DNA of 64,000 nucleotides from a bacterium (GTDB lineage Bacteria > Hinthialibacterota > Hinthialibacteria > Hinthialibacterales > Hinthialibacteraceae): NCBI GenBank assembly GCA_963663405.2, contig CAXXSM010000149.1, forward strand, positions 64,001 to 128,000. The letters are read 5' to 3'. Made by a program: the position numbers and the translations under genes. Of this stretch, positions 4,458 through 58,056 are shown in pieces (within the stretch, counting starts at the first letter, position 1; each line of letters begins with the position of its first letter). The notes beneath the pieces were generated by a model. The model did no database searches, was not told the origin of the DNA, and saw only the letters and a program-made list of their open reading frames with translations.

Positions 4458-4484
4458 CGAATTGGATTGCGCAAAGGATTGGAT

Positions 4485-36619: not shown

Positions 36620-36697
36620 ATTGAAATCCCAGCCCGTTTACGAAAGCAAATGATTTTCAATACGTAATGACTATCAAATCAATATTACAGGATTGAA

Positions 36698-39388
36698 TTA
36701 ATAAAGCGGCCAATTGCCAATGGGAGTATCTAACTGCATCAATTCGATGACAGCCCATCCCGTTTCGTCGTTTTTATAGGCGTCTGTGATCACGCCGTAA
36801 GCGTTCATGTGCCAATAAGCATAAAATCCATCAGAGGGATCGATCATTTTGAAATCAAAACCGATTATATTGCGGTCGGGTGGATCCAGCGCGACTGATT
36901 TATCTACGATGAATTCCACTACATAACCAGACATATCATCTTTGATGCGCGCTCCATAGTTCATATAGACGCCATTTGTCGTGTAATAAAAACCATCTCC
37001 TTCGATCGGAGTCGCTCCGTTGGGAACGGAACCATCGCCATAGTAGCCATGTCCATCAACGATAACTCCAATCCCAAATCCATACTGGTCTGCTTCTTTT
37101 CGGGTTAAACGTGAAAAATTGCCATCTAAATAAAGAACTGCTGAATCATTATTCCATCCTGTGCTTTGGTCGACAATAATATTAGGATCCAATACATCGG
37201 ATGCGATATAAATGAAATCCTGGTCATGAAGTAGATAGAGAACCGTATGCTGTACTTCAGGTGGATTTGTGTTGCCTGTGAGATGAACGCCAGGAGGTTC
37301 GCCGAATGGATTGTTCGCCGGATCTGGCACATAATTATCAAACATCTCTGTGTAAGCTTGGTCATATTCTCCATCACTGATTAAACCATCAAGAGTAATA
37401 TTGGCGTTTTCAACGAATGGCACACTGAAGATTATTGGTTGAATTTCATAATCACCAGCAATAGGGATTTCATCACCTGATGAATCAACGCTTGTTCCAT
37501 CGAACAATAAGCAAACTTTTTCAAAGCCACTAGCAGCCATATATTCAACATCATAGGACATTTGAGCGCTGCCGCTAAGATCGGATAGGGTCCATTCAAT
37601 CAAATCATCGGTTATAGAGAATTCACCATTGGTGACTGAAATATTCGTTGGAGTCACACCATCAGGTATGATTTCTTTAATGACTCCATTTATGGGAGAA
37701 TCTCCTGAAGAAACAGCATTGAGAATAATGTTTTCAATCACGCCATTTTCTGATGAATCATAATATGATACTGGAATTTCACGTGAAACATATAGATCAT
37801 ATTGAATGATTTCTACATCCGTGAAATCAGCAAAGCTGACATAATCCGGACCATTCCATGAAGTGACGCCAAGACCTACATAAACAGGATCTACTAAATT
37901 AAGTATATGGGTTTTAGCCAATTCTGTTTTTTCACCAGTTGAATAGTCCATGTAATAAACAGATACTACATCCCCTACTCGAAGGATTTCGATATCCCCG
38001 CCATGAACATCCACGGAAACATTTCCTACATTGTCCGCTTCTGTATCCGCCACTTTTTTTCTGGATTGCATTCGTAAATTATTGTTAGAAAGAAGTTGAG
38101 CGGAAGTATATACAGCGTCTGGCTCTAAGGAATCCCGGATAAACAATCCGGCGCGGGCATTGGCGCCGTCTCCAGATGCGAAATCTAAAAGTACATTGGC
38201 TTTCAACCGGAAGGGACCATTCATCTCATTAAATAGAAAATACATGTTGTCCGTACTCTCGATGCTTCCCCCTCCTGCGCTTAACTCATATCTACCATTT
38301 TCATATATGGGATCCAATCCTTGCAAGTCGGCGTTCCCAAGGAGTATTTGATGTTCAAAATCTCCCAAACCACCGGGTAACACGGCTTTTGTAAAATCGC
38401 CTAATATGGGAAGTTCACCGATTGTTCCGTATATACTCACCTGTTGATTGGAAATTATATCGACATTTTGAGGAATTAATTCGTAACTGACAGTAGTCAT
38501 TGAATCTGTCAAATTCCAAGTAATGGATGAGTCTGATAGAACACCACCATCACTTATATTCGATGTATCCCACCCATCGGGGATCATTTCTGTCAAAGTA
38601 GAGGAGGCTGGATTCGCAATATCGATGGATATTAGCGAAGGTTTTCCATTTTGGAATACTTCATCTTCGATCGTGCGCCATGCGATTGGAGATTGGAATT
38701 CATCGATAATGACATCCGTAATTTCTCCCACAGCTAAGAAATCGTCTTGTGAGTGACTGGTTATAGCGAATCCATAGGCTAATGTTTCTTCCATAGGCAA
38801 TACCATGGAATGACCTAACATCCAATTTTGACCATCGGTGGAAAATTCTGCAAATAACCAATCTTTTTCCGCCACCCGAGTAAGACGAAGCCACATCGAA
38901 CCACCATCAAGTGGAACAATATTTCCATCCTGATCTTGGAAGCGAGTGCGATCCACGCCAGGTGTTCCATCTAATTCCATACGCCATTGTGCGCTGGAGT
39001 ACTCCCATGTGCCTTTAGCCAAGGCGCCATAATACACTCCACCCGGTTCTTGGGGATGCTGTCGAATGATCGGACCGAATTTTGTCCAAGCTTCCGCTCC
39101 AGGATCGTTCCAAGTTACTTTTCCTGAAATGAAGTAACTCCCACTTCTTTCAGTGTAAGCAAAGAATCCTTCATCCTGGTTGTTCCAAATGTCACGGCCA
39201 TTTCCATAAATTGTGTAAATCGCGTCACGGCCAGAACCTTCAACAGTGATTTCTCCATCCGTTTTGTTTGTGTTTTCTTCCAATGTCCAATCTGCGGATT
39301 GGTCGAATAATCCAACGGCTCCGGAATTTTGGATAAAAATGAATAGTGCCAATAAAACAGTAGTGAAAAACAGTGATAGATATTTCAT
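36698..39388 (-). CDS. large secreted acidic multidomain protein (2 ConA-like + 2 Ig-like + CBM9-like) with C-terminal W-motif
   Basis: signal peptide; paired TLTEMIPDGW..ITWNL / VIKEIIPDGV..IEWTL; ITLDGLISDGEY..FIYIASDVLD..GYVVEF..IGFDF; ends DTPIGNWPLY. Confidence 0.75.
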   Translation of the reverse strand: MKYLSLFFTTVLLALFIFIQNSGAVGLFDQSADWTLEENTNKTDGEITVEGSGRDAIYTIYGNGRDIWNNQDEGFFAYTERSGSYFISGKVTWNDPGAEAWTKFGPIIRQHPQEPGGVYYGALAKGTWEYSSAQWRMELDGTPGVDRTRFQDQDGNIVPLDGGSMWLRLTRVAEKDWLFAEFSTDGQNWMLGHSMVLPMEETLAYGFAITSHSQDDFLAVGEITDVIIDEFQSPIAWRTIEDEVFQNGKPSLISIDIANPASSTLTEMIPDGWDTSNISDGGVLSDSSITWNLTDSMTTVSYELIPQNVDIISNQQVSIYGTIGELPILGDFTKAVLPGGLGDFEHQILLGNADLQGLDPIYENGRYELSAGGGSIESTDNMYFLFNEMNGPFRLKANVLLDFASGDGANARAGLFIRDSLEPDAVYTSAQLLSNNNLRMQSRKKVADTEADNVGNVSVDVHGGDIEILRVGDVVSVYYMDYSTGEKTELAKTHILNLVDPVYVGLGVTSWNGPDYVSFADFTDVEIIQYDLYVSREIPVSYYDSSENGVIENIILNAVSSGDSPINGVIKEIIPDGVTPTNISVTNGEFSITDDLIEWTLSDLSGSAQMSYDVEYMAASGFEKVCLLFDGTSVDSSGDEIPIAGDYEIQPIIFSVPFVENANITLDGLISDGEYDQAYTEMFDNYVPDPANNPFGEPPGVHLTGNTNPPEVQHTVLYLLHDQDFIYIASDVLDPNIIVDQSTGWNNDSAVLYLDGNFSRLTRKEADQYGFGIGVIVDGHGYYGDGSVPNGATPIEGDGFYYTTNGVYMNYGARIKDDMSGYVVEFIVDKSVALDPPDRNIIGFDFKMIDPSDGFYAYWHMNAYGVITDAYKNDETGWAVIELMQLDTPIGNWPLY

Positions 39389-39440
39389 CAGTAATCATTC
39401 CTCCTTAGTGGTCATGATTATACGAAGAACTGAATATAAG

Positions 39441-39546
39441 ATTATCAGACAAATTAGAGAAAGATTAACCGTTTGTCAATAGGATATTGAAACATTTTTA
39501 GAATTTTTTGATTTTCATCTTGATTTTTATTTTGTCTGATAATATG
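39441..39546. promoter_or_regulatory. two copies of a TTGTCTGATAAT operator-like motif in the divergent intergenic region
   Basis: ATTATCAGACAAA (39441-39453, minus) and TTTGTCTGATAATATG (39531-39546, plus); third copy at 40403. Confidence 0.7.
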
Positions 39547-39581
39547 ATAAATAGAATATCTCATAAAGAGGTGATTTTCAA

Positions 39582-40235
39582 ATGGGGATTATTAAAAATG
39601 GATTCACGTTAATTGAATTGTTAATCGTCGTTGCGATTATAGGTATTTTGGCGGCCATTGCTGTTCCCAATTTTATGAATGCGCAGGTTCGGGCCAAAAT
39701 AGCCAGATCTCAAGCGGATATGCGTTCGATCGGAACGGCGATTGAGTCATTTCGCATTGATAATGGCGCTTTATTGGTGGATTTTTATGATGAACAAGAT
39801 ACTGCGGCAATACAACGTTTACAAAAATGGGGATTATGTTCTGTTAACAATTTTGATGACGCCGTTAGGAATCAACGTTGCATATATGCTAATTTAACTT
39901 CTCCTGTAGCTTTTATTTCTGCAATACCTGATGATCCTTTTTTTGGTAAAATTAGCAACAATGTGACGGATCGTTTAATAGAGGCGTTTGCGGGTACTTA
40001 TATTTATTATGATAATGAAGCAGCCATCCCTGGAGATGACCATTATGTTCCGCTGTTGAGCGGTGATAATGGTAAGCCCTTCAATGTTAATCCTTTAGGA
40101 TTGAATCAATGGGTATTGTTGGGAATTGGTCCTGATTCGAGTATTGGCGACACAGATCTCAACAGAAGGGGAATCCCTTACGATGCGACAAATGGTCTTC
40201 GAAGTGAAGGCGATTTGATGACGAGAAGCGGGTGA
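39582..40235 (+). CDS. prepilin-type N-terminal cleavage/methylation protein (GspG-like pseudopilin)
   Basis: NG|FTLIELLIVVAIIGILAAIAVPNF; LTSPVAFI..DPF; YDATNGLRSEGDL. Confidence 0.92.
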   Translation: MGIIKNGFTLIELLIVVAIIGILAAIAVPNFMNAQVRAKIARSQADMRSIGTAIESFRIDNGALLVDFYDEQDTAAIQRLQKWGLCSVNNFDDAVRNQRCIYANLTSPVAFISAIPDDPFFGKISNNVTDRLIEAFAGTYIYYDNEAAIPGDDHYVPLLSGDNGKPFNVNPLGLNQWVLLGIGPDSSIGDTDLNRRGIPYDATNGLRSEGDLMTRSG

Positions 40236-40402
40236 TCAGATTCACTCAATTCATTGAATAATGAACATTCCATTGGTTTCTTCGAGTGTTTATATGTAAA
40301 TGAGTTCCTAAAGGCTTTCTCGTTCAAATTCGTTCCCGCAACTCATTTTCATTTGCAGGTTGTGATCTCGATCATGTTGGTTTATATGGATATAATACAT
40401 GA

Positions 40403-40417
40403 TTGTCTGATAATATG
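40403..40417 (+). promoter_or_regulatory. operator-like motif upstream of the FadR regulator (autoregulation)
   Basis: TTGTCTGATAATATG, identical to 39532-39546. Confidence 0.7.
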
Positions 40418-40450
40418 TTATTTACTGACACGTTTAGAAGAAGGTAAAAA

Positions 40451-41209
40451 ATGTTCCAAGAATTGAAAAGAGAGAATCTGTCTAAGACTCTTGTTCGCGC
40501 ATTAAGCAAGTATATTTTAGAGAAAAATCTAAAACCGGGAGACAGGCTACCTACTGAGAAAGAATTATCCACGAGTTTTCAAGTTGGAAGAAGCGTAGTG
40601 CGTGAAGCATTGAAAGCATTGGAGATTATTGGATTAATCGTGTGCCGACCAGGTGTGGGAGCGGTTCTTTCGTCTGAGGGAGTCGATCCTTTCTTGCTGC
40701 CATTCGTTTTTGGATTTGTTCTTGAAGAATCCAAATTGAAAAGTTTATGCGAATTGCGATTAATCTTTGAACAAGGCGCCGCGCGATTGGCATGTGTTAA
40801 TTGCACTCTGGAAGAACAATCCAAATTAAAGGAAATCGCAGAAAATTTGGATGAAATCAAAGAAGTAACGTATGAAAATCCAACCGACGAAAACCAAAGG
40901 AAACTTTGTGAGTTGGAGATCAGTTTTCACCAGAAATTGGTACTTGCGTCGAAAAATTCTGTTCTAATGAAATTTGGCGCGCTATGGGAGATATTCTTCC
41001 TACATGCGTTGGAAACAGGTGATCTTGTTCGAGCGTCAAAAGCGGGACAGGAAAACCTTGTTACAAAGGTGAAACATACCGAAATCGTTGATGCGATATT
41101 AAAGAAGGAAGAAGATAAAGCCTCGGAACTGATCAAAATCCATCTGGTATACTGGCTGAAAAATTTAGCCTCTGTATCGAAAGAATCTTTGATTAAACTG
41201 ACTGGGTGA
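40451..41209 (+). CDS. GntR/FadR-family transcriptional regulator
   Basis: LKPGDRLPTEKELSTSFQVGRSVVREALKALE wHTH; FCD domain (ELRLIFE, FHQKL, HTEIVDAI). Confidence 0.92.
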   Translation: MFQELKRENLSKTLVRALSKYILEKNLKPGDRLPTEKELSTSFQVGRSVVREALKALEIIGLIVCRPGVGAVLSSEGVDPFLLPFVFGFVLEESKLKSLCELRLIFEQGAARLACVNCTLEEQSKLKEIAENLDEIKEVTYENPTDENQRKLCELEISFHQKLVLASKNSVLMKFGALWEIFFLHALETGDLVRASKAGQENLVTKVKHTEIVDAILKKEEDKASELIKIHLVYWLKNLASVSKESLIKLTG

Positions 41210-41291
41210 CAATTTGTTATTACTGATGTATTAAACGATTCATTTTTTGATCTTAAACATATCTGGAATAGAGTTGTTTATTAGTAATTGG

Positions 41292-41493
41292 TAAGCCATC
41301 TGAAGTGATAGATTCCTCTCCCAAGCCTGGGGGAGGTTAGCTGAGGGTTGATTCATCGATGTTCAACCCCCCTCTAACTCCCTCCAATAACAGGCGCTCG
41401 CGCCGGAGCATTAAGGGGGGAGAATTAGCTCAGCGACGCCTCGTAAATTGATTGTTGATATCTAATTATTTCATGTGACTGATATGATACAAA
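41292..41493. repeat. palindromic dispersed element (MITE/REP-like), copy 2
   Basis: shares TAAGCCA..GAAGTGAT..ATTCCTC, ATGTTCAACCCCC, AATAAC.GGCGCTCGCGC.GGAGCATTAAGG and terminal TATGATACAAA with 22107-22327. Confidence 0.75.
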
Positions 41494-41521
41494 GTAACAA
41501 TCCAAATAAAAGAAGGTCATA

Positions 41522-42229
41522 ATGTCGAATACAAACTATAAACACGCTCCTTTAGAACTGGACTATGATGTAGTAAGCATAAATGAGAGATTCAGAAAAT
41601 TATATACGGGTTTGGTTTACGATGCTTGCGAACACTTTGGTTTACCGTGCACGGCAATGGAGAGTGGAATCTATCCTTTGATTCATACAATGAAAGTCGC
41701 AGGACCTGCATTCACGGTTCATTGTATATCCACGCCCAACCGAAATGAGGAGCTTCATGATATACGTCTTGGAATGTTGAAAAGCATGACGCCGGGTTGT
41801 ATCCAAATTCGGGACACACAAAACAACCAGAATTGCGGCCAGTTTGGTGAAATCAGCGCGACTGCCGCCCGTGCCGCTGGATGCGCTGGAGCTGTGATTG
41901 ATGGCAGTACGCGGGATAGCAATCACCTGATTGATATGGATTTTCCCACCTTTTGCCGGTTTCGAAATCCAGTCGAAGCGTTCGGACGGTTTATGGCTGT
42001 TGACTATCAGATTCCTATTTATGTTAAAGGAATTGACGGCCAGTTGATCGTTCACCCAGGAGATTACATCATTGGTGATAACGATGGGGTTGTTATTATT
42101 CCAAAGGATCACACTCTTCAAGTGTTGGAACAGGCCGAAACCTGGAAACAATCTGAATCCCAAAGCCGTGAAGCCATGGGAAATGGGATTGATCCCTTCG
42201 AAGTTTATGCAAAGTACGGGCGTTTTTAA
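41522..42229 (+). CDS. RraA / HMG-aldolase family protein
   Basis: VAGPAFTV, FGEISATAA, GAVIDGSTRD, VHPGDYIIGDNDGVVIIP. Confidence 0.9.
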   Translation: MSNTNYKHAPLELDYDVVSINERFRKLYTGLVYDACEHFGLPCTAMESGIYPLIHTMKVAGPAFTVHCISTPNRNEELHDIRLGMLKSMTPGCIQIRDTQNNQNCGQFGEISATAARAAGCAGAVIDGSTRDSNHLIDMDFPTFCRFRNPVEAFGRFMAVDYQIPIYVKGIDGQLIVHPGDYIIGDNDGVVIIPKDHTLQVLEQAETWKQSESQSREAMGNGIDPFEVYAKYGRF

Positions 42230-42315
42230 CACATATACTTGCTCTTTCTTTTTTATCAAAAGAGAAAAGTATCTATCGACTTACAAGTAAGAATTTTATG
42301 GGGGGAACTTACAAA

Positions 42316-43566
42316 ATGACAAAGAAACATTTAATTCCCTATCAATGGGAAATGATAATTCTATTATGGTTTGCCTATTTTTTTAATCAAGGCGATCGTC
42401 AAATTTATAATGTGGTTTTGCCGTTAATCAAAACGGATTTACTATTGAGTGATGTACAATTGGGATTGGTTGTCACGATATTCACTCTCTGTTATGCCGT
42501 CCTGGTTCCTATTGCTGGCTATATTGGTGATGTTTATCGTCGAAAATGGGTTGTTTTTGTAAGTTTGCTCGTTTGGAGCACTGCCACCTTGTTTACTGGA
42601 ATCAGCACTGGAATCGTGCTCTTAATACTTTTCCGCGGTATAGCGACAGGAGGAGGAGAAGCGTTTTATTATCCGGCCGCCAACTCTCTAATCGGACAAT
42701 ATCATCATAAAACCCGGGCTCTCGCGATGTCCATACATCAAACTTCCCTTTATGCGGGAATTGTGGCCAGTGGATTTATCGCAGGATATATCGGAGAACA
42801 TTTTGGCTGGCGCATGGCGTTTTATCTCTTTGGGGTATTGGGAATACTTTTGGCTGGCGTCATTTATTTCAGACTAGAAGACACACCGCAACTCAATCAC
42901 GACCAAACAAACAGCGACTTGGACAACGAGCGGATTCCCATTTCATCGGTTCTAAAAAGCATTGCCTGCAAACCGACCGCGTTTATGCTGTGTATGGCTT
43001 TTGGTGGGATGGTCTTCGTTAACATCGGTTTCATGACCTGGATGCCGACATATCTTCATGAAGATTTTTCCCGTTCTCTAACCATGGCGGGTTTCGATTC
43101 CACTTTCTACCATTATTTATTTGCTTTTTTCGGTGTCTTGTTAGGCGGACAATTCTCCGATTACTTTGCCCAAAAACGACGGACCATCCGCTTGGAAACC
43201 GAATGTTTAGGTTTGTTATTAGGCGCGCCGTTTATCTATCTGATGGGCGCCACAGAAAACATGTTTCTATGTTATTTCGCCATGGCCGCATTCGGATTGT
43301 TTCGTGGAATCTATGATTCCAATCTTTTTGCCGCGTTGTTCGATGTGATAGAACCGAGAGTAAGGGCGTCTGCGGTTGGGATTATGATTGCTTTTGCCTT
43401 TATTGTAGGAGCGTTCGCTCCATTGATCCTTGGGTGGGTCAAAGAGAACTGGGGCTTGGCGATTGGAATATCCTCTTTGGGATATGTGTATTTCATCTCA
43501 GCATTAGTAATTTTATTCGCTCAGTTTTTCTTCTTCAAAAAAGATTATTACGAAGAGAAGGATTAA
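42316..43566 (+). CDS. MFS transporter, paralog 2
   Basis: FFNQGDRQIY, GYIGDVYRRK, ATGGGEAFYYPA; start could be 42298. Confidence 0.9.
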   Translation: MTKKHLIPYQWEMIILLWFAYFFNQGDRQIYNVVLPLIKTDLLLSDVQLGLVVTIFTLCYAVLVPIAGYIGDVYRRKWVVFVSLLVWSTATLFTGISTGIVLLILFRGIATGGGEAFYYPAANSLIGQYHHKTRALAMSIHQTSLYAGIVASGFIAGYIGEHFGWRMAFYLFGVLGILLAGVIYFRLEDTPQLNHDQTNSDLDNERIPISSVLKSIACKPTAFMLCMAFGGMVFVNIGFMTWMPTYLHEDFSRSLTMAGFDSTFYHYLFAFFGVLLGGQFSDYFAQKRRTIRLETECLGLLLGAPFIYLMGATENMFLCYFAMAAFGLFRGIYDSNLFAALFDVIEPRVRASAVGIMIAFAFIVGAFAPLILGWVKENWGLAIGISSLGYVYFISALVILFAQFFFFKKDYYEEKD

Positions 43567-43596
43567 TCTAAAAAAACAAGAATAGGAGATAGAAAA

Positions 43597-44964: not shown

Positions 44965-44966
44965 TC

Positions 44967-46157: not shown

Positions 46158-46160
46158 TAA

Positions 46161-49097: not shown

Positions 49098-49263
49098 GTT
49101 TGATCCTCTTATTAGTGTAAAATGGCAGTCTAATGAAAAGTATAGATACAAGATACGAAGTATTACCATCCAAGTTGGGAACATTAGAGGGGGATCGTCG
49201 GAACAATCCTATCTAATCGGCTCAACTTGGAGGAGGAATTGTTAACAAATCCAAAACAAAGGC

Positions 49264-51294
49264 TCAATACAAACTCCATTCACGAACGGGTGTTTCTTCG
49301 GTATAGATTTTGACGTTATCGATGAAATAATCACCACCGCTATTGGTGACATTCACTAAAAAGAGATTGTCAATACTGGATAATTGGTTGGTCTGCCAGA
49401 ACATCGCATCCGTTTCATATTGAACTAAAGTTGAAAAGGTGAGATCCCCTTCGTCTCCCTGCCAGAATTCATACGTGTTGGTTTTTGGATCAGCGATGAT
49501 TCGAATGGGGTACCAATGTTCGACTCCACTGTCCGGATCAGACGCTAGAATGGGAGTGGTTCTTAATTCTCCCGCATCTTCCACTCCATCCTTGTTGGTA
49601 TCTCCAATAAAGTTCCATTGAGCGCCATCGTAATAATTCGCCACGCCCGGTTCCAATTGTCCCCAAACCACATGCCCTCCTAACGTGGAATCTTGACGAA
49701 TGATCACTTGACAGGCTCGCGCTCCAGCGGCGCCGGTAACGGTTGACGCCATCAGAAAATCAATCGTTACGGGTTCGGTTTGACTGCCGAAATCGATAGA
49801 CAAGTTATCGACGCCGCTTCTAACCTTCAATGATTTATCGCCCACGGCGATAATCTCTTCTAATTCTCCTCCACCCGCGACCCGCTCGCTAGCTTCCGCT
49901 CCCCAAGCCCCTTCAAAATCCTGCTCGATAACGGTCTGACCGGATTTCGTAACAATGGATACGTTATCAACAAAGAAGTCACCCATCCCTCGTTCTTTGT
50001 TTTGAAATTGAATTCCATCAATGGAATCCAATAATCGCCAAAACCATAAATCGTCCCCATATTGAGTGAGATTTTCAAAATTCAAGTCGTTGGCAGGTCC
50101 CATAAAAAAATCAAAACTATGATTCGCAATATCAAGGTCCAATTGAACCGGGTACCATTTGGCCGATGTGGGATCTTCTGGATCCGTTATTTCAATAAGC
50201 GGTGGCCATGTTTCATCCCCGTCTTCCACAAGATTTTGATTGGTATCCCCGATTTGACGCCACGCTGTGCCATCGTAAAAGTTACTCGATCCCGGTTCGG
50301 TCTCTCCCCAACAAATGAACGTGACGATATTGGAGCCGGTATTCCCACCGTTCAACGTCCACACTTGCGCCGCGCGCTGATTTTTATAACCGCCCAAGGT
50401 TGTAAATGAAATTAGAAAACGAAACGTGAAATTTTCCAGGATTGGATCGAAATACGCGTAAGCGCCATCGATATCTTTGAGAAGCATCAATGAATGCTCA
50501 CCGATCGCAATCAATGAATCGTCACGTTCGGGAATGCCTTCAAAATCATTTTCGAATACCACGGCGCCGTCATGAGATATTTCCAAATTGTCTATAAAAT
50601 CACCGCTTGATGATGGATTAAAATAGAAACGATTGATTTCGGGAGGGAAATCCACGGTATAGAGGTCTTCGCCGTATAATTTCAGTGTGGAAAAAGACAT
50701 ATCGTTGGGGGCGCCTTGCCAATAATCGAAAATGGCTTCATCAATATTAATAACCAATTGTATAGGAATCCATTGCGCTTGATCGGGTTGATCCGGATCG
50801 GAGACCGGAAGAGCGGGAGGCCATTCCTCGCCATCATTTTCTATACCATCGAAGTTCGTATCCCCAATTTGCACCCAGCCGTCTAAATCCTGATACGCCG
50901 GTAATCCTTCGATCACATTACTCCATCGAATATCCGAAGCCACAATCGCGGTTTCTCCGGAAATTCCCTGGAGATAGACTCTTCCACCAGGGGAGTCTGG
51001 ATTCGAGGCGACAGTCGACGAAATCAAAAAACGTATGGTAATCGAACCGGAGACGGGAATAAAATCCTGACTATAATAGGTATTTCTCGAATATTCATCG
51101 ATCGCCAAGGCCGTCGGCGCGCGTTCCAATTCCGGTAGGGATTGAAATCCGGCTTGCGGACCTAACGAACTTAGATCATCGAAATCCTCTTCATATAAAA
51201 TATCAGTCTGCCCTGCGATCGCGCCGATGCTTGACAAAACACAACATACAAAAACGATACCCCATCTTTTTGTCTTGGTATACTTTTTCATCAT
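49264..51294 (-). CDS. secreted acidic protein with three tandem beta-sandwich repeats and C-terminal W-motif
   Basis: signal peptide; three IGDTN..E-D/GE repeats; ends ETPVREWSLY. Confidence 0.75.
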   Translation of the reverse strand: MMKKYTKTKRWGIVFVCCVLSSIGAIAGQTDILYEEDFDDLSSLGPQAGFQSLPELERAPTALAIDEYSRNTYYSQDFIPVSGSITIRFLISSTVASNPDSPGGRVYLQGISGETAIVASDIRWSNVIEGLPAYQDLDGWVQIGDTNFDGIENDGEEWPPALPVSDPDQPDQAQWIPIQLVINIDEAIFDYWQGAPNDMSFSTLKLYGEDLYTVDFPPEINRFYFNPSSSGDFIDNLEISHDGAVVFENDFEGIPERDDSLIAIGEHSLMLLKDIDGAYAYFDPILENFTFRFLISFTTLGGYKNQRAAQVWTLNGGNTGSNIVTFICWGETEPGSSNFYDGTAWRQIGDTNQNLVEDGDETWPPLIEITDPEDPTSAKWYPVQLDLDIANHSFDFFMGPANDLNFENLTQYGDDLWFWRLLDSIDGIQFQNKERGMGDFFVDNVSIVTKSGQTVIEQDFEGAWGAEASERVAGGGELEEIIAVGDKSLKVRSGVDNLSIDFGSQTEPVTIDFLMASTVTGAAGARACQVIIRQDSTLGGHVVWGQLEPGVANYYDGAQWNFIGDTNKDGVEDAGELRTTPILASDPDSGVEHWYPIRIIADPKTNTYEFWQGDEGDLTFSTLVQYETDAMFWQTNQLSSIDNLFLVNVTNSGGDYFIDNVKIYTEETPVREWSLY

Positions 51295-51416
51295 TTTTTC
51301 TCCCTAATCAAATTTGATTATAGAATTCCTAGAAGTGTTCTTTTTTATAATTTTCTAATAATGTTTTTGAATAGAATCTAACGGCGCCCAAGCCTTCCTC
51401 GAGAAGATTTGTGGAA

Positions 51417-52001
51417 TCAAGGACCAAAGCGATAAATATCCCCATCGCTGTTCAATCCATTGCTAGAGTCGAACCATTTCATAAAGTCGGATCCCCCCGC
51501 TCCCGGATCGGCTTCATAATCCCGATCCGGCGCAGCGCCCATCAGCACCCATCGCCCCCGCCGCTCTTGTTCTTCCGGCATATAAGCGAACCGGCGCGAT
51601 GAGAGTTTGATATTGTCCGTGGTTTCAGGATCCCATAGTGGATACGCGTTCGACATGTACGTATCATCGATATTGGTTCGAAACGGGTCCAAAGGAACAC
51701 TGTTCATATAACTGACCGGTGAGGTCATTTTTGCCAGTCTTCCATAACGCCAATCCCGTGTGCTCGAAGGAGCCGCCGGGGGATACATATTGTTGTCCAA
51801 TCGATACATTTCCAGCGCGCTCCCCAACGATCGCAGATCGGCTTCACAACGAGCGATAAGCGCCCGAACCCGCGCATTGATAAAATTGGGCACAGCAATG
51901 GCGGCCAGAATGCCAATGATCGCGACGACGATAAGCAATTCAATTAAGGTAAAACCGCGAAAAGGAGTTTTTTGATTGTTTGTCGATTTTTTTTCATTCA
52001 T
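51417..52001 (-). CDS. prepilin-type N-terminal cleavage/methylation protein (GspG-like pseudopilin)
   Basis: RG|FTLIELLIVVAIIGILAAIAVPNF; MTSPVSYM..DPF; FDSSNGLNSDGDI. Confidence 0.92.
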   Translation of the reverse strand: MNEKKSTNNQKTPFRGFTLIELLIVVAIIGILAAIAVPNFINARVRALIARCEADLRSLGSALEMYRLDNNMYPPAAPSSTRDWRYGRLAKMTSPVSYMNSVPLDPFRTNIDDTYMSNAYPLWDPETTDNIKLSSRRFAYMPEEQERRGRWVLMGAAPDRDYEADPGAGGSDFMKWFDSSNGLNSDGDIYRFGP

Positions 52002-52186
52002 CGTCCGTTTCCTTTAGGTTCCACAATCGCAACAGAAAGGCATAACATCAAAAAAAATTTTTTTTGATTGACGAAACGGAAAAAAGTAAAGGAGGGAAGT
52101 CCAATCTACAATATACAGATCCTATTGGAATGAGGTTATGCCATATAGAGAGATCGTTTCCAATTCCATCCACTTTCCCCCATCTC

Positions 52187-52202
52187 ATATTGTATACAAT
52201 AT
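52187..52202. promoter_or_regulatory. GntR-type operator palindrome
   Basis: perfect 16-bp palindrome ATATTGTATACAATAT overlapping a minus-strand TTGACT-17-TATTGT promoter. Confidence 0.75.
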
Positions 52203-52348
52203 ATAAAAATAAGAGGGAAGTCAACAGGAAAAATTAAATTTTTGTTTGATTCATAAGTTTAATGTTATTAGGATATTTTTATAAGTTCAAATAAATCAAG
52301 GAAGTATTTCTCTATCATTTTTTTATCTGCCCATAGATTTTTTTTGAT

Positions 52349-52364
52349 ATTTTGTATATAATAT
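52349..52364. promoter_or_regulatory. second GntR-type operator copy
   Basis: ATTTTGTATATAATAT (2 mismatches to 52187-52202), followed by the same ATAAAA; just upstream of the MFS gene. Confidence 0.65.
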
Positions 52365-52391
52365 ATAAAAGTATCTTGATCTCAAACTGAA

Positions 52392-53675
52392 TTGCTGGAG
52401 AATATTCCTTTGAATACATATAATGATTCCTTGAATTCCAATTCCCGTTTTTATAAATGGGAATTGGTTTTCTGGTTGTGGCTGGCCTTTTTCTTCAACC
52501 AGGCGGATCGCCAAGTTTACAGTGTGGTCTTGCCTCAATTGCGAGACGATCTGCAGCTGACCGACGAACAATTAGGATTAATCGCTTCGGTCTTTATATG
52601 GACCTTGGCGATTATGGTTCCATTTGCAGGATACGCTGGGGATCGATTTCGTAAGAAATGGATCGTGACAGGCAGTATCCTGTTTTGGAGTGTGGCGACT
52701 CTTTTTACGGGATTCAGCGCTGGTTTCGTGTCCCTCATGGTGTTTCGAAGTATCGCGACAGGGGGAGGCGAGGCTTTTTACGCGCCGGCCGCCAGTGCCT
52801 ATATCGGTGAGTTTCATCGTAAAAGCAGAGCGACGGCCTTATCCATCCATCAAACTTCCTTATATGTTGGAGTCGTGGCAAGTGGTTTTTTATCCGGTTA
52901 TATCGCAGATCATTGGGGGTGGAAATCAGCCTTCTACGGCTTTGGCGCGGCAGGGATTCTATTGAGCGTCATTTTGCTGTTCCGCTTGAAAGACGCGCCA
53001 ACCGGAATTGGCGATGTTACGGATACATCCAATCGCGGTAATGTCACTTTCAAGAACGCTTTATCCAAATTTTTTCAAAAACCGACCGCCCTGTTTCTCA
53101 CGATGGCTTTTGCTGGGATGGTCTTCGTTAACATTGGTTATTTAACTTGGATGCCGACATTCTTGCACGAGCGATTCAACTTGTCTCTTGCGGAAGCTGG
53201 ATTCGCATCAATGTTCTATCATCACCTGTTCGCTTTCATCGGGGTTATGCTTGGAGGACAATTATCGGACCGATGGAGTCCGGCCTATCCAAAAGCGCGT
53301 CTGGGAATCCAAGCGGTGGGGTTGCTATTGGGAGCGCCTTTCATTTATTGTATGGGGCAGGGAAACACTCAATTTTATATCTATATCGCCCTAGCGGCTT
53401 TTGGATTTTTTCGTGGATTATATGATTCAAATATTTACGCTTCGCTTTACGAGGTGATCGAGCCAAAATATCGTTCTTCAACCTCGGGAATTATGATATT
53501 ATTTGCGTTCCTTACCGGCGCGTTTTCACCGTTGCTTTTAGGGATACTGAAACCGAACTTGGGGCTTTCTTTCGCACTGTCCAGTCTGTTTTTGTTTTAC
53601 ATTTTCGCCTCACTCTCAATCGTTGTGGCGTTGCTATTTTTCTTTGATCGAGACCGGATAGAACAACTATGTTAA
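52392..53675 (+). CDS. MFS transporter, paralog 3
   Basis: FFNQADRQVY, GYAGDRFRKK, ATGGGEAFYAPA; start could be TTG 52410. Confidence 0.9.
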   Translation: MLENIPLNTYNDSLNSNSRFYKWELVFWLWLAFFFNQADRQVYSVVLPQLRDDLQLTDEQLGLIASVFIWTLAIMVPFAGYAGDRFRKKWIVTGSILFWSVATLFTGFSAGFVSLMVFRSIATGGGEAFYAPAASAYIGEFHRKSRATALSIHQTSLYVGVVASGFLSGYIADHWGWKSAFYGFGAAGILLSVILLFRLKDAPTGIGDVTDTSNRGNVTFKNALSKFFQKPTALFLTMAFAGMVFVNIGYLTWMPTFLHERFNLSLAEAGFASMFYHHLFAFIGVMLGGQLSDRWSPAYPKARLGIQAVGLLLGAPFIYCMGQGNTQFYIYIALAAFGFFRGLYDSNIYASLYEVIEPKYRSSTSGIMILFAFLTGAFSPLLLGILKPNLGLSFALSSLFLFYIFASLSIVVALLFFFDRDRIEQLC

Positions 53676-53702
53676 TTTTCGAATAGTAAGGACAAAATTG
53701 TT

Positions 53703-54422
53703 ATGACCAGTACTGTTAAAAACGCTGAAATCAATCCGGAAATCCTCTCTTTCGGAGAGCCCGTTTACGCGCGCGTGTGCGAACATATTCGGCAGGATAT
53801 TCTCTCCGGCAAATTGGAAGCCGGATTTCGATTGAAGATCCATGGATTGTGCCAGCGATACAATGTCAGCCAAATGCCAATCCGGGAAGCCTTGCAGCAA
53901 TTGCAAGGGGAAGGTCTGATTGTTATCGAACCCAATCGCGGCGCTTACGTTCGCCGGGTGGACGAACATTTCATCAAGAATATGTATGACATTCGTGGAG
54001 CGATCGACGCGTTGCTGGCCCGTTTGGGAATACCGAATCTAACCGATGAATCTCTTGAAAAGATCCTGGAAATTCAAGAACGTTACGAAGAATTCGCGCA
54101 TGCGAAAGACACAAACGTTTTTCTGACAATTAACAAGCAATTTCATCACGAGTTCTATATGCTCGCCGATAATCCGGAAGCGCTTCAAATCATGGAACGT
54201 CAATGGGGATTGATTGATACCCTGCGAGCCAAATACGGATTCGGCCCCACCCGTTTGATCGAAATCATGAGCGAACACAGAGAGTTACTGGAAGCCTACG
54301 AACACCGGAATATCGCTTTGGCCGAAAGGATCGCGCGGGATCATTGCGAAAAAGCGAAAATCGACCTGCTTCAGCAAATACGAGACAAGAAAGGCTTCGA
54401 TAAAAAGGAGGATCGACCATGA
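53703..54422 (+). CDS. GntR-family regulator with FCD domain
   Basis: IRQDILSGKL..YNVSQMPIREALQQLQGEGLI..PNRGAYV; NKQFH, EHRELLEA. Confidence 0.92.
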   Translation: MTSTVKNAEINPEILSFGEPVYARVCEHIRQDILSGKLEAGFRLKIHGLCQRYNVSQMPIREALQQLQGEGLIVIEPNRGAYVRRVDEHFIKNMYDIRGAIDALLARLGIPNLTDESLEKILEIQERYEEFAHAKDTNVFLTINKQFHHEFYMLADNPEALQIMERQWGLIDTLRAKYGFGPTRLIEIMSEHRELLEAYEHRNIALAERIARDHCEKAKIDLLQQIRDKKGFDKKEDRP

Positions 54423-55171
54423 CCGATCTTTCGGGACAAGTGGCATTGGTAACCGGAGCGTCCCGCGGATTGGGAAAAGGGATCGCGCTGGTATTGGCCG
54501 AAGAGGGCGCGAACATCGTGGTTAATTATCGATCCTCGAAAAAAGAAGCGGAAGAAACAGCCGAAATGATCCGCTCCTTAGGACGTGAAGCGCTTCCGAT
54601 TCAAGCCGATGTCAGTAACGCCGAAGACGTCGCAAAAATGTTTATTGAAATTCAATCCTGTTTCCAAAAAATTGATATCCTAGTCAATAACGCTGGCACA
54701 ACTCAAGCGAAAGATATTTTTGAAATAAACGAGCAAGATTGGGATTTTATTCTCGATACCAATATGAAAAGTTGTTATCTTTGTTCAAAAGAAGCGTTCA
54801 AAATGATGAAACATCGCAAGCGGGGAAGAATCATCAATATCAGTTCCGTCGTAGGCGAGCAGGGAGCGCTGTACGGTCACGTCCATTACGCAACCACCAA
54901 AAGCGGGATGCTGGGCTTCACCAAAACCTTGGCGCGAACCGGCGCGCCATTCGGAATCACCGTCAACGCAATCGCGCCGGGGATCATTGAAACGGAATTG
55001 CTAATTCAAACCCATGGCCGGGAAAAAGTGGATCAACTTTCTAAACAAGTTCCCTTAGGATTGGGAACTCCACGAGACGTCGGATGCGCCGCCGCCTTTC
55101 TCTGTGGAGAAGGCGCGCGTTATATAACCGGAGCGACAATCGATGTGAACGGCGGAATGTATATGCGGTAA
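54419..55171 (+). CDS. SDR family oxidoreductase
   Basis: TGASRGLG, NNAG, YATTK, VNAIAPG, IDVNGG. Confidence 0.9.
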   Translation: MTDLSGQVALVTGASRGLGKGIALVLAEEGANIVVNYRSSKKEAEETAEMIRSLGREALPIQADVSNAEDVAKMFIEIQSCFQKIDILVNNAGTTQAKDIFEINEQDWDFILDTNMKSCYLCSKEAFKMMKHRKRGRIINISSVVGEQGALYGHVHYATTKSGMLGFTKTLARTGAPFGITVNAIAPGIIETELLIQTHGREKVDQLSKQVPLGLGTPRDVGCAAAFLCGEGARYITGATIDVNGGMYMR

Positions 55172-55201
55172 TTATCCAAGTTATAAAGGAATTATGAAGT
55201 A

Positions 55202-56371
55202 ATGAAAATCACGGATATCAAAACATTTATTTGTCATGCCTATCGAACCAATTGGGTGTTTGTCAAAGTTTACACCGATTCTGGATTGTATGGAGTTGGT
55301 GAAGCTACGTTAGAAATGCGTGAACTGACTGTGATGGAAGCAATCAGTGAAATTAAAAGGGGATTGGTTGGGAAAGATCCTGAGAATATAGAAGGTCTTT
55401 GGCTTACAATTTACCGCGATACCTATTGGCGGGGCGGGCCGGTCCTCATGTCGGCTTTGGCGGGTGTTGAAATGGCGTTGTGGGATATAAAGGGCAAGAG
55501 TTTAGGCGTACCGGTTTATCAATTATTGGGTGGGAAAGTACGGGATAAAGCCCCATGTTACGCGAATGGTTGGTTTGCTGGAGCGCGTACTCCGCAAAAA
55601 TTTGCCCAAAAAGCGAAAGAGACGATACAACTCGGTTTTCAAGCCTTGAAATGGGATCCATTTGGTTCCGCTTATCTTAATTTATCCGCAAGAGAATTTC
55701 AGGAAGCCCTTCGCTGTATCGCCGCTATACGGGAAGCCGTTGGCAGCGAGGTGGATTTGATTATCGAAGGACATGGACGTTTTAATCTCCCTACAGCAAA
55801 ACGTTTGGGACATGCCATGAAGGAGTTTCAAATCCTTTGGTTTGAAGAACCATTATGCCCGGAGAGTCATGAAAGTTTAGCCGACTTGCGTCAACAGATA
55901 CCGATTCCGGTCGCCGCGGGAGAGCGGATTTACAGCCGATGGGATTTTTATGATTTTCTTACCAAAAAAAGCGCAGATATTATCCAACCGGACGTCTCGC
56001 ATGTGGGGGGAATTATGGAAATGAAGAAAATCGCCGCGATGGCGGAATGTTGTCAAATCCCTTTATGTCCCCATAATCCAAGCGGCCCTGTCGCTCATGC
56101 GGCGACTCTGCATCTTGCCGCATGTATAACCAATTTCTATTTGTTGGAAACCATGAGCGCCGATGTGGATTACCGGAATCAAATTTGTACTGAAAATCTA
56201 CTCTTTGAAGATGGAATGATCCATATCAGTAATGAACCCGGATTAGGAATTGACATTAATGAAGACGCCATACTGAACTACCCATATAAACCTTGCGAAT
56301 TGAGACATTACAATGGAGATTTAACCGAAATTCGTCCACGCAGCGCGAAGATGTATATGCAGAGAATTTGA
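55202..56371 (+). CDS. dgoD: galactonate dehydratase-like (mandelate racemase subgroup)
   Basis: GVGEATLE, YWRGGPVLMSALAGVEMALWDIKGK, YANGW, LKWDPFG, EGHGRF, WFEEP, AAGER, QPDVSHVGG, PHNPSGP. Confidence 0.75.
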   Translation: MKITDIKTFICHAYRTNWVFVKVYTDSGLYGVGEATLEMRELTVMEAISEIKRGLVGKDPENIEGLWLTIYRDTYWRGGPVLMSALAGVEMALWDIKGKSLGVPVYQLLGGKVRDKAPCYANGWFAGARTPQKFAQKAKETIQLGFQALKWDPFGSAYLNLSAREFQEALRCIAAIREAVGSEVDLIIEGHGRFNLPTAKRLGHAMKEFQILWFEEPLCPESHESLADLRQQIPIPVAAGERIYSRWDFYDFLTKKSADIIQPDVSHVGGIMEMKKIAAMAECCQIPLCPHNPSGPVAHAATLHLAACITNFYLLETMSADVDYRNQICTENLLFEDGMIHISNEPGLGIDINEDAILNYPYKPCELRHYNGDLTEIRPRSAKMYMQRI

Positions 56372-56430
56372 TGTAAATACAATTATGACTGAATGTATAA
56401 ATTACCATTCATTGATTGAAAGGAAAATGC

Positions 56431-58056
56431 ATGATGTTATCAATTAAACAAATAACTTGCTTACTGATATTTTCTTGTTTTACTATGATCGCTACTCTGT
56501 CTGTGACAAGTGGTGACTTGATAGCAACTGATGAAAATGTAAAGAAAAACATTTCTCCAATTGCGCTGATTCAAGAGAATAATCCTGCGCAAGGAAAAGA
56601 GATTGACTCATCGTCTAATAGTCAAGTTAAAGTTACCAGCATATCCCGAACAATTGACGCTTCTAAATATTCTAATCGATTTCCCGATCTAGCCGCGTAC
56701 CGGAATACTTCAATACAAAAAGCGCCTGCGCCTGCGCTTGCTGAATTAAGCGCGAACGAGTTTGGCATAGCGAAAATCACCCGGTGTTGGTTAAACCTCG
56801 ATGAAATGTGGGATTATCGAACGCGAGAATATAACTACAACTATACAATTGGAGTTCACAAGTACGATGATGTCTCGGAGAAACACGAGGAATCTTGGGG
56901 ATGGGTCACAGAGACCAATGTGCCATTTTATGATTACTTGAGCGCATTCAGTAAGTATAGTGATGAAATCATGTTGACCATCCGGCGATATGAACGGGAT
57001 ATTTTGGATGGGAAACTTGACGTTACGATGAATGACTGGAAAAGAATTTTTAAAAACGCTGTAATTCATTATAAAGGAATTTGTTCCAATCTTCGTTATA
57101 TTGAAGTATGCAACGAATATGCTATTAAAGGTTTTATCGGATGCACGGCGGATGAATACTATCAGTTTTACAAACTCGCATATGAAGCCGTTAATGAAGC
57201 CAACGCAGAGATGAACTTAAAGGACGATAACCGAATTCTGGTGGGAGGTCCTGTGGTGACCGGCGACATTATTAAGAAACTAAATCTCTTTTTTGAAAAT
57301 TATAGCAGGGACACATCGGCAAATAAGAAAATGGATTTTGTTTCGTGGCATGAATATAGCAAAAGCTATGACGCAATCGCTCATCGAGAAAAACAGGTTC
57401 GAGAGATGATGGATCAACATGGTCTCAAAGAAGACATCCCCTTATTTATCAGCGAACACGATCCCTATCATCCTCCGGCGGGGAGTAGAGAGTACAATCT
57501 TATCAATGGCGCGGGATTAGTTAAGTCACTTTATTTTACGAATTATTTCAGTCCCGGAATTAAAATCATGCCTTGGGTACAATATCACAACGCTGAGATT
57601 CAAACACGGTTCATGTGGTTTGGTGGTCCCAACGAACCGGATACTAAAACTAAAGAATTGCGAATGCTGCCGGCTGGTTGCTCAATGAAGTTTCTTAGCA
57701 TGCACAAAGATTGGGAAATAGAAGTTGACAATGCGCTCGATAAAGATGAGATTGTGTTGGCTTCGATCCAAAATGACGGAATCGTCGTTCATGTGGTCAA
57801 TTATGACAAGCCGCGAGCTGTACAAATCCGGCTGGACAATATCCCAAAATCGTTTTTAAATTTGAAGGATGGAAAAATAAAAGCAGTCAAATATCTCATC
57901 GATCAGCAGCACTGTAACTGCGTGGCCAATCCCGACTATTCTGGCGGAATTGAAAAGGTAGGAGATGAGTGGATAGAATTGAACGGAGGTTCAATCACAC
58001 TCTCACACTCCAAACTTACAAAAAACGGAATACTGTTGTGGGAATTGATCCCATGA
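56431..58056 (+). CDS. secreted clan GH-A glycoside hydrolase (GH39-like)
   Basis: signal peptide; YIEVCNEY (acid/base), VGGP, DFVSWHEY, LFISE (nucleophile). Confidence 0.7.
   Translation: MMLSIKQITCLLIFSCFTMIATLSVTSGDLIATDENVKKNISPIALIQENNPAQGKEIDSSSNSQVKVTSISRTIDASKYSNRFPDLAAYRNTSIQKAPAPALAELSANEFGIAKITRCWLNLDEMWDYRTREYNYNYTIGVHKYDDVSEKHEESWGWVTETNVPFYDYLSAFSKYSDEIMLTIRRYERDILDGKLDVTMNDWKRIFKNAVIHYKGICSNLRYIEVCNEYAIKGFIGCTADEYYQFYKLAYEAVNEANAEMNLKDDNRILVGGPVVTGDIIKKLNLFFENYSRDTSANKKMDFVSWHEYSKSYDAIAHREKQVREMMDQHGLKEDIPLFISEHDPYHPPAGSREYNLINGAGLVKSLYFTNYFSPGIKIMPWVQYHNAEIQTRFMWFGGPNEPDTKTKELRMLPAGCSMKFLSMHKDWEIEVDNALDKDEIVLASIQNDGIVVHVVNYDKPRAVQIRLDNIPKSFLNLKDGKIKAVKYLIDQQHCNCVANPDYSGGIEKVGDEWIELNGGSITLSHSKLTKNGILLWELIP

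Follow-up and report, generated by a model that had tools for sequence, protein, structure and literature searches.

Why should a solitary prepilin gene and a gene for a secreted, non-catalytic protein stand together at two bacterial loci devoted to sugar catabolism? This question is raised by a 64-kb stretch of DNA (hereafter the window), comprising bases 64001-128000 of contig C149 in a metagenome-assembled genome of 8.44 Mb (170 contigs; completeness 82%, contamination 2.4%). In each of its two adjacent loci, A and B, a pilin gene lies beside a gene whose product, W-A or W-B, ends in a short tryptophan-containing tail, which we term the tag. A preliminary description of the window proposed that such pairs head carbohydrate loci in place of the SusC/SusD proteins of polysaccharide utilization loci (PULs). 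We present evidence that tagged genes and pilin genes are paired non-randomly across several genera. As to what the pairs do, we tentatively favor, at somewhat less than an even chance, a regulon-specific module of pseudopilin and tagged lectin that would be exported or displayed by type-4-filament machinery.

Tagged genes and pilin genes are neighbors more often than expected

Genome-wide counts were made on our own greedy set of 7253 open reading frames (ORFs) of at least 80 aa, a crude set obtained without a gene caller. An ORF was counted as tagged if its end matched the strict pattern [VIAT]..W.[LVIM][YHFR]-end, and as a pilin paralogue if it was recovered by phmmer with the pilin of locus A or of locus B as query. 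Pilin genes directly adjoin 21 of the 142 tagged genes thus defined, as against 5.7±2.4 expected and a maximum of 16 in 5000 shuffles of the pilin labels over the 7253 ORFs, an excess of about 3.7-fold. This excess is specific to the tag and does not extend to secreted-like proteins generally: the frequency of pilin adjacency is 4.0% (93/2304) for other ORFs with a hydrophobic N-terminus and 3.2% (150/4658) for the remaining ORFs. Relaxing the tag to [VI]..W followed by three to five residues yields 27 adjacent genes among 217 (8.8±2.9 expected), and a control with the tryptophan moved to 8-10 residues from the end yields 3 among 35 (1.4 expected). In 18 of the 21 pairs both genes run in the same direction, 7-542 bases apart, with the tagged gene coming first in 11 and the pilin gene in seven. 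When pilin frequency is followed outward from a tagged gene, it drops from 7.5% at a distance of one gene to 4.0% at two and about 3.1% at three to 15, over a background of 2.05%; that is, part of the adjacency excess is regional and a clear peak remains at distance one.

The pairing recurs beyond this genome. In a genome of another genus (G010; 8 contigs, 43 strict tag hits and 142 pilin-motif hits), we inspected eight regions in which a tag and a pilin motif lie within about 3 kb of each other, and found a pilin directly beside six of the 32 evaluable tagged genes, namely those in the part of the genome for which pilin positions were available, with two more having a single gene in between. 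Motif density would lead one to expect about 0.06 pilin motifs on the same strand in the 200 bases downstream. The orthologues of W-B in both other genera in which the locus could be read (G015 and G003) have a pilin directly upstream, and the G015 orthologue of W-A, which is 76% identical, retains both the divergent pilin and gntR. That adjacency is merely the product of two abundant gene classes was a legitimate concern, which the preliminary description had itself raised, given that the pilins and tagged proteins make up 149 and 142 of the 7253 ORFs. The observed 21 pairs, however, lie beyond every shuffle, the excess is replicated in G010 and the synteny is conserved among orthologues, and we consider chance to be excluded for practical purposes.

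We also observed that in G015 a distance of only about 2.5 kb separates the W-B pair from the W-A pair, both being on one strand (G015:C40:2373-12528), with a GntR-like gene replacing that for the DUF6259 protein after W-B. From this arrangement, the two modules appear to move relative to the catabolic operons.

The tag is a modular, lineage-restricted C-terminal tail

Conservation at the C-terminus is limited to positions -9 to -1, which are successively occupied by T/S/V, P/S, V/I, any residue, N/D, W, any residue, L/V, and Y, with H or F possible at the last position. The nine-residue consensus is accordingly [TS]-[PS]-[VI]-x-[DN]-W-x-[LV]-[YHF], of which W-A and W-B show the version TP[VI]xxWxLY. 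With ORFs shorter than 150 aa set aside, 6851 remain, of which 99 end in W..Y and 32 each in W..H and W..F, any other last residue accounting for 1-21; a hydrophobic N-terminus is found in 83 of 101 W..Y-ending ORFs as against 53% of all ORFs. When the last 15 residues are removed, BLAST groups the 142 strictly tagged proteins into 67 clusters, including 45 singletons; therefore, the tail is a modular tag rather than the end of one domain family. In about 30 further proteins the motif is extended by a single residue, in many cases E, D, K or Q, and hence it is not strictly necessary that the aromatic residue itself bear the free carboxylate. The tail is modeled with low confidence (predicted local distance difference test score, pLDDT, below 50) in both W-A and W-B.

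We next consider its phyletic spread, for which we used 35 species-level genomes of the phylum, belonging to one class and six families (20 of them in f1, the family of the window), and an outgroup of 26 genomes from other phyla. The strict DNA pattern (V-x-x-W-x-L-Y-stop) occurs 16-46 times per genome in the window's family, 4-19 times in two sister families and 3-36 times in the rest of the phylum. Controls with the reversed pattern give 0-8. In the outgroup the strict pattern occurs 0-2 times, which is near background. The tag is thus a tail restricted to this lineage. It matches no Pfam or NCBIfam model, and no NCBIfam family was recovered for W-A or W-B at E-values up to 0.01. It is apparently undescribed: keyword searches of open-access text, which do not reach into supplements and are not proof of absence, returned no paper on the tag or on pilin/tagged pairs.

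The tagged proteins of the window have predicted lectin-like folds

W-A and W-B show no sequence homology to each other and have only the tail in common, a point on which the earlier account needed correction. Neither shows a recognizable catalytic domain. In Pfam searches, W-A reaches 22.9 bits with DUF1349 and 21.4 bits with CBM9_1 (cut-off 23.4), both below the respective cut-offs. Its structural model (pLDDT 72.9; 895 residues from an alignment of nine sequences, hence a shallow one) displays concanavalin A-like sandwiches of the DUF1349 type alternating with immunoglobulin-like domains, and Foldseek matches it to the DUF1349 structures 3o12 and 3mep (TMt 0.72). The C-terminal region, with its sub-threshold CBM9-like signal, is poorly modeled, with stretches of pLDDT below 50 between residues 684 and 895. 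W-A belongs to a large paralogous family with 13-27 matches per genome in the window's family and 1-19 in two sister families. W-B, by comparison, matches no Pfam or NCBIfam family, and a search of 5.8 billion proteins recovered only three homologues of it, all of which keep the tail. Its model (pLDDT 66.6), resting on a similarly shallow alignment of four sequences, predicts three beta-sandwich repeats of the LamG/LNS type; searches against the PDB returned laminin LG1-3 (E 8.9e-11), neurexin LNS domains and tandem galectins, all with a Foldseek probability of 1.00. A different arrangement of the three domains accounts for the low global TM scores, and the individual jelly-rolls are predicted to superpose on LG/LNS or galectin domains, as expected of the LamG/concanavalin A-like fold. 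On the strength of these models, the label lectin-like given to the two proteins in the preliminary description appears to have been well chosen, and is a fair description of some other paired proteins too.

Of the other paired tagged proteins (n=19), 10 have no Pfam family. The remainder match LamG_3, beta-helix/pectinesterase-like, CBM9 (two), cohesin plus dockerin, 3-keto-disaccharide hydrolase-like, FG-GAP, Kelch and DUF6250 families. The protein with both cohesin and dockerin domains (873 aa; G000:C130:124423-127044) adjoins a pilin, and its domain composition suggests that some tagged proteins might assemble into larger surface complexes.

The pilins resemble GspG, and the genome encodes the machinery

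Both window pilins have a prepilin leader ending in G|FTLIELL, with Glu5 and then a hydrophobic N-terminal helix, the signature of type 4 filament pilins, and both score above the cut-offs of PF07963 N_methyl (pilin A 32.6, pilin B 34.4 bits; cut-off 21.2) and TIGR02532 (37.6 and 34.6 bits; cut-off 16.3). They are 36% identical to each other. The likeness to GspG extends into the globular part, as indicated by sequence matches to the GspG structures 3g20 and 5wda, and pilin B attains the Pfam T2SSG model (23 bits; cut-off 21), which pilin A does not reach. Both fall short of the GspG equivalog model TIGR01710 (63.6 bits for pilin B and 52.7 for pilin A; cut-off 88.85), and neither has a match to DUF1559 (SBP_bac_10) or the H-X9-DG motif. 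By their profiles, then, they are best described as members of the type 4 filament pilin superfamily that resemble GspG without being GspG equivalogs. Neither lies in a gsp operon; both are solitary within their catabolic loci, and the same is true of most of the 149 paralogues in the genome, which are far from any gsp or pil operon. Of the 138 paralogues of 150-300 aa, 98 share a C-terminal NG..[ST].GD motif. The expansion is not peculiar to this genome: each genome of the phylum contains 38-238 matches to a DNA pattern for the leader motif, compared with 6-55 in genomes from outside the phylum.

The core type II secretion and type IV pilus genes, which the preliminary description had left to be located, are present on contigs other than that of loci A and B. 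Profile searches of the genome placed them on contigs C29, C118, C133 and C109, and recovered seven T2SSE (GspE/PilB-type ATPase) matches, 13 T2SSF (GspF platform) matches in four loci, eight Secretin matches above the cut-off and two Peptidase_A24 (prepilin peptidase) matches. Contigs C29, C118 and C133 also encode GspK/I/J-like tip proteins. T2SSC (GspC) had no match in the genome.

Two probable sugar-acid loci and their putative operators

The ORFs ascribed to loci A and B in the preliminary description were recovered at exactly the same coordinates (Table 1). Both loci combine a GntR regulator bearing a winged helix and an FCD domain, as in the FadR subfamily, with a major facilitator superfamily (MFS) carrier of the anion:cation symporter (ACS) type that is nearest to the D-galactonate transporter subfamily in NCBIfam, though scoring under its cut-off. 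Together with their dehydrogenases and dehydratases, this gene content indicates that loci A and B are probably routes for sugars that are oxidized to sugar acids. The DUF6259 protein and the GH39-like protein of locus B have no informative solved relative by sequence.

Table 1. Coordinates of the tagged/pilin pairs, catabolic genes and putative regulatory sites in the window
Feature	Position	Strand	Remarks
Third pair, pilin	10699-11409	+	not mentioned among the pairs of the preliminary description
Third pair, BNR_4-like secreted protein	11415-12737	+	440 aa; 5 bases after pilin; degenerate tail TSVGDWMRFD
W-A (locus A)	36698-39388	-	896 aa; secreted; no catalytic domain; end TPIGNWPLY
12-mer TTGTCTGATAAT, copy 1	39441-39452	-	divergent W-A/pilin A promoter region
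12-mer TTGTCTGATAAT, copy 2	39532-39543	+	divergent W-A/pilin A promoter region
Pilin A	39582-40235	+	217 aa; GspG-type prepilin paralogue; divergent from W-A
12-mer TTGTCTGATAAT, copy 3	40403-40414	+	37 bases 5' of gntR
GntR+FCD (FadR-type) regulator, locus A	40451-41209	+	Pfam domains
RraA-like aldolase, locus A	41522-42229	+	
MFS transporter (ACS-type), locus A	42298-43566	+	
GH10, locus A	43597-44964	+	
Enolase-family acid-sugar dehydratase, locus A	44961-46157	+	
SDR sugar dehydrogenase, locus A	46161-46916	+	passes NCBIfam glucose 1-dehydrogenase subfamily model
DUF6259 protein (locus B)	46911-49184	-	757 aa; DUF6259 114.5 bits; last gene of the pilin B - W-B - DUF6259 string
W-B	49264-51294	-	676 aa; secreted; end TPVREWSLY
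Pilin B	51417-52001	-	194 aa; GspG-type prepilin paralogue; directly upstream of W-B
Two 25-nt repeats	52187-52211, 52349-52373		contain palindrome TTGTATACAA or TTGTATATAA; pilin B/MFS divergent promoter region
MFS transporter (ACS-type), locus B	52392-53675	+	divergent from pilin B
GntR+FCD regulator, locus B	53703-54422	+	
SDR, locus B	54419-55171	+	
Galactonate dehydratase, locus B	55202-56371	+	NF010624 equivalog 369 bits, cut-off 311
GH39-like protein, locus B	56416-58056	+	27.2 bits, cut-off 26
Tagged-like protein without adjacent pilin	59672-61069	+	465 aa; secreted; end GVEDWTMYR (tag plus one residue)

Operator-like repeats had been claimed near the pilin promoter regions, and the promoters of both loci indeed contain putative palindromic or quasi-palindromic operators, TTGTCTGATAAT in locus A and TTGTATACAA in locus B. 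Exact copies of TTGTCTGATAAT number four in the 8.44-Mb genome, and three of these are in locus A, preceding W-A, pilin A and gntR, with two of them in the 193 bases that separate W-A from pilin A. The G015 orthologue of this locus has versions with one mismatch at the equivalent three places, and the spacer sequence around them has diverged. Because this second genus keeps the motif positions in spite of differing spacers, locus A is likely to possess a real shared operator, and there is good evidence that TTGTCTGATAAT is a putative operator common to W-A, pilin A and the regulator gene. In locus B, the gaps within the minus-strand string are 122 bases between pilin B and W-B and 79 bases between W-B and the DUF6259 gene. 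The 390-base spacer between pilin B and the divergent MFS gene holds TTGTATACAA as a perfect palindrome at 52190 and a close variant of it at 52352. No counterpart of these repeats was seen in G015 or G003, for which short flanking stretches could be compared. A promoter scan of 36500-56400 found promoter-like sites no more numerous than in shuffles, and most terminator-like matches lay inside ORFs.

Two further features were noted in and beside locus A. A G+C-rich inverted repeat with 24-nt arms (75% complementary) lies at 41328-41386, between gntR and the RraA-like gene, and may be a terminator or a repeat element that splits the locus into two transcription units. On the other side, a 578-aa ORF at 34722-36458, overlapped there by a 338-aa antisense ORF, lies between the gene for a GH13 protein and W-A; it has no Pfam family and a basic, transposase-like composition, and may represent a mobile element.

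Do the pairs head carbohydrate loci in place of SusC/SusD?

To place the pairs in context, we compared the three nearest ORFs on each side of the 21 pairs (122 proteins) with those around 20 random genes (120 proteins, two of the neighborhoods overlapping). The former matched 188 families, of which the 25 commonest were tallied, so that glycoside hydrolases occurring singly would not appear in the tallies. The pair neighborhoods include Response_reg (6), BNR_2 (4), HATPase_c (4), the extracytoplasmic function (ECF)-type Sigma70_r4_2 (4), FGE-sulfatase (3) and Reg_prop (3); in the control, Response_reg reaches 3 and HATPase_c 2, and Sigma70_r4_2, BNR_2, Reg_prop and FGE-sulfatase are each below 2. 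Ten immediate same-strand neighbors, scanned singly, include a LacI regulator with an HpcH/HpaI aldolase, a Reg_prop/Y_Y_Y sensor kinase, a LuxR-type response regulator, a GFO/IDH/MocA oxidoreductase and a rotamase. The pairs hence tend to adjoin dedicated regulators and some glycan-related genes, in numbers too small for a firm call. GntR, FCD, MFS_1 and SDR each occur twice, that is, only in the two loci of the window. The layout of a pair with GntR, MFS and dehydratase genes is therefore particular to this window, and the proposal that pairs head carbohydrate loci finds support at its two loci but not as a general rule.

Contig C149 alone has five tagged/pilin pairs (contig coordinates 38580, 61666, 100698, 113264 and 129160), and sensor histidine kinases of the Reg_prop/Y_Y_Y type and LuxR-type response regulators flank further pairs (window 61159-63999 and beyond). 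The third pair within the window (Table 1) is directly followed by a MotA/ExbB-like proton-channel gene and a 93-aa ORF (12799-13701), with no TonB receptor in the window.

Scanning the ORFs of the window with Pfam bore out the statement that the 64 kb contain no TonB-dependent receptor or ABC binding protein. In the whole genome there are only two good matches to TonB_dep_Rec, both on contigs other than that of the window, and no match to SusD (PF07980); as the genome is 82% complete, these receptor counts are lower bounds. The two loci are, then, not PULs of the SusC/SusD kind. Co-regulation of TonB receptors elsewhere with these loci had been named as an outcome that would speak against the proposal, and no operator-like site comparable to those of loci A and B was found near either receptor gene. 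As for the phrase in place of SusC/SusD, the paucity of these proteins stood up to examination, and the analogy is, on present evidence, one of position.

In its strong form this analogy would make the pseudopilin and tagged lectin an equivalent of SusCD, in which a retractile fibre carrying the lectin would bind the polysaccharide and reel it in as far as a secretin, or through one into the periplasm, so taking over from TonB-dependent import. Such a reading can appeal to the placement of the pairs at two regulated catabolic loci, the predicted lectin folds of W-A and W-B, the near-absence of TonB receptors and lack of SusD in 8.4 Mb, the eight secretin and seven ATPase matches, and the binding of dextran by pili-like fibres of Planctomycetes (PMC5394234). 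Yet the only transporters of the two loci are inner-membrane MFS carriers of the sugar-acid type, which fit an extracellular or periplasmic breakdown to monomers better than the uptake of polymer. Moreover, most pairs elsewhere are not beside carbohydrate-active enzyme, GntR or MFS genes, the receptor counts are lower bounds given the incompleteness of the genome, and the specific support for this reading is confined to the scarcity of TonB receptors. We therefore regard a SusCD-equivalent uptake system as unlikely.

A model for the pairs and the evidence for and against it

We start from what was observed, namely the genes with their domains and folds, the lineage-restricted tag, the non-random and conserved pairing, and the shared operator of locus A. 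In the model that we tentatively prefer, each locus would be a repressor-controlled route for a sugar or sugar acid (GntR/FCD regulator with its operator, ACS-type MFS carrier, dehydrogenase, dehydratase, aldolase and glycosidase) that has recruited one copy of a two-gene module common in the lineage, consisting of a GspG-type pseudopilin paralogue and a Sec-exported, non-catalytic tagged lectin. The tagged protein would cross the inner membrane by Sec and then be recognized through its tail, which would act as a sorting or docking signal. It would leave the periplasm through a secretin, moved by a machine akin to those of type II secretion or type IV pili, into which the co-expressed pseudopilin would be built. 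Once released, or held on the cell surface or fibre, the lectin might bind the polymer that is attacked by the glycosidases of the locus, and the resulting monomers or sugar acids would enter through the MFS carrier.

In the main competing view, tag and pilins have no functional connection: the tail would be a general retention or sorting signal of the lineage, read by a non-pilin receptor or protease, the pilin paralogues would have other roles, and the two gene classes would meet more often than chance only through being envelope genes in shared regulated accessory islands. This view would readily explain why pilins remain enriched at three to 15 genes from tagged genes, where there is no adjacency, and why, in families f2 and f3, the numbers of pilins and of tags do not go together. 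Several other observations likewise weigh against our model. Most members of both classes are unpaired (121/142 tagged genes, or 85%, and 128/149 pilin genes, or 86%), and the tag-adjacent pilins form no clade, being scattered over the pilin tree with 20 state changes as against 19.9 in 200 shuffles. At the loci of distant W-A homologues (27-36% identity), a pilin is found in one of 10 within flanks of about 1.5 kb. Two relatives poor in tags are rich in pilin motifs (4 tag and 182 pilin hits in G023, 12 and 179 in G020); the pilin expansion is therefore independent of the tag. The pilin genes are located far from the core secretion loci. Around the other pairs the neighboring genes are of mixed kinds, with family tallies that depart from the random control by small numbers only. 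Finally, inspection of the sequence before the RraA-MFS-GH10 operon of locus A revealed no clean copy of TTGTCTGATAAT, and the link between pair and catabolism in that locus thus rests on position.

Against functional independence, on the other hand, stand the sharpness of the peak at distance one, the co-directionality of the large majority of pairs, some of them with gaps of 7-15 bases, and the want of any comparable excess for other secreted-like genes. To these can be added the retention of the pair in orthologues across three genera, its recurrence in G010, and the single putative operator common to W-A and pilin A. Taking both sides together, we judge independence of tag and pilin to be somewhat less likely than our model, and a serious alternative to it. 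Two results do not enter this balance. Tag and pilin counts over the 35 genomes are correlated (Spearman 0.47 overall, 0.62 within f1), to which we give no weight because genome size and relatedness confound it, and a complex prediction for W-B (residues 27-676) with pilin B (44-194), using their own shallow alignments, scored 0.00 and counts neither way.

A bolder extension of the export-and-display model would treat the tail as a phylum-restricted export or docking signal, and the 40-240 pseudopilins per genome as interchangeable, regulon-specific adaptors that load tagged lectins or enzymes, amounting to a programmable apparatus for secretion and display, which would take the place of SusCD-type glycan capture in a lineage nearly devoid of TonB receptors. 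We offer it as an unlikely though stimulating proposal. At a more modest level, this lineage unites a short C-terminal signature found on about 2% of predicted proteins, more than 100 pseudopilin paralogues per genome, and a statistically solid, conserved linkage between them, with two cases lying under a recognizable candidate repressor-operator pair whose inducer, a sugar acid, can be guessed. The pilin and tagged lectin pair may be a new way to export or display sugar-binding proteins, and if the link between tag and pilin is true, it would change how the glycan-degrading capacity of genomes without SusCD and TonB systems is read.

Other genes of the window

The remaining ORFs of the window include further sugar-acid and glycosidase genes by their Pfam matches (GH2, GH13, gluconolactonase and amidohydrolase_2). 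An epoxyqueuosine reductase-like gene lies at 101-1213, followed by a small Gp49/HigB-like toxin gene (1261-1629) and a 102-aa ORF (1638-1946), which likely form a toxin-antitoxin pair. At 2235-5387 we found a glycyl-radical enzyme (PFL-like plus Gly_radical) and then its radical-SAM activase. A CobN/Mg-chelatase gene is split, probably on account of a frameshift, into one ORF (13698-16193) spanning profile positions 2-611 and a second, overlapping one (16015-17238) spanning positions 725-1081.

Comparison with known systems

The window pilins share with GspG and the type IV pilins the leader with Glu5, the hydrophobic helix and the GspG-like globular part, and the genome has the accompanying peptidases, GspE/GspF proteins and secretins. 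They differ in being drawn from about 149 mostly solitary paralogues with sub-equivalog scores, one in seven of which is beside a tagged secreted protein. Large pilin-like expansions occur in several poorly studied phyla, and we know of no accepted function for them. How type II secretion and related machines recognize their substrates is likewise, to our knowledge, a question of long standing, since most substrates have no known linear signal.

With the SusC/SusD PULs the two loci have in common a candidate surface glycan-binding protein and an envelope component at the head of a regulated catabolic locus. The regulators of PULs also resemble the types seen near the pairs, namely GntR, LacI, Reg_prop/Y_Y_Y sensor kinases and ECF sigma factors. 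Here, in contrast, there is no SusC in the window and no SusD in the genome, the candidate binding protein does not belong to the SusD-fold lipoproteins, and import would be by an MFS carrier.

A short, lineage-restricted C-terminal signature on otherwise unrelated secreted proteins is also the hallmark of the PEP-CTERM/exosortase, GlyGly-CTERM/rhombosortase and LPXTG/sortase systems and of the type IX C-terminal domain. These known sorting signals carry a transmembrane segment or a folded domain, whereas the tag described here has no transmembrane helix, basic tail or domain of about 80 residues, and consists of nine conserved residues at, or one residue from, the end.

The Planctomycetes-Verrucomicrobia-Chlamydiae group has expanded pilin-like families of the DUF1559 type. 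Its members resemble the present lineage in combining many pilin-like paralogues with few classical glycan importers, and differ in that the window pilins have no DUF1559 match. By analogy, the pili-like fibres of Planctomycetes, which bind dextran (PMC5394234), would be the nearest ecological precedent.

The nearest mechanistic precedent, again by analogy, appears to be type IVb pilus-dependent secretion. In TcpF/TcpB of Vibrio cholerae and CofJ/CofB of enterotoxigenic Escherichia coli, a secreted protein is hooked to a minor pilin by a short flexible N-terminal peptide (PMC9565799; see also PMC6048534 and PMC10120004). In both those systems and ours, a secreted non-pilin protein is encoded together with a pilin and bears a candidate terminal peptide signal. 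Theirs is N-terminal and engages a large minor pilin at the tip of a pilus encoded by a dedicated operon, whereas the candidate signal of the tagged proteins, suggested by gene adjacency and a flexible tail modeled at low confidence, is C-terminal, and its presumptive partners are small GspG-like pilins encoded in scattered pairs.

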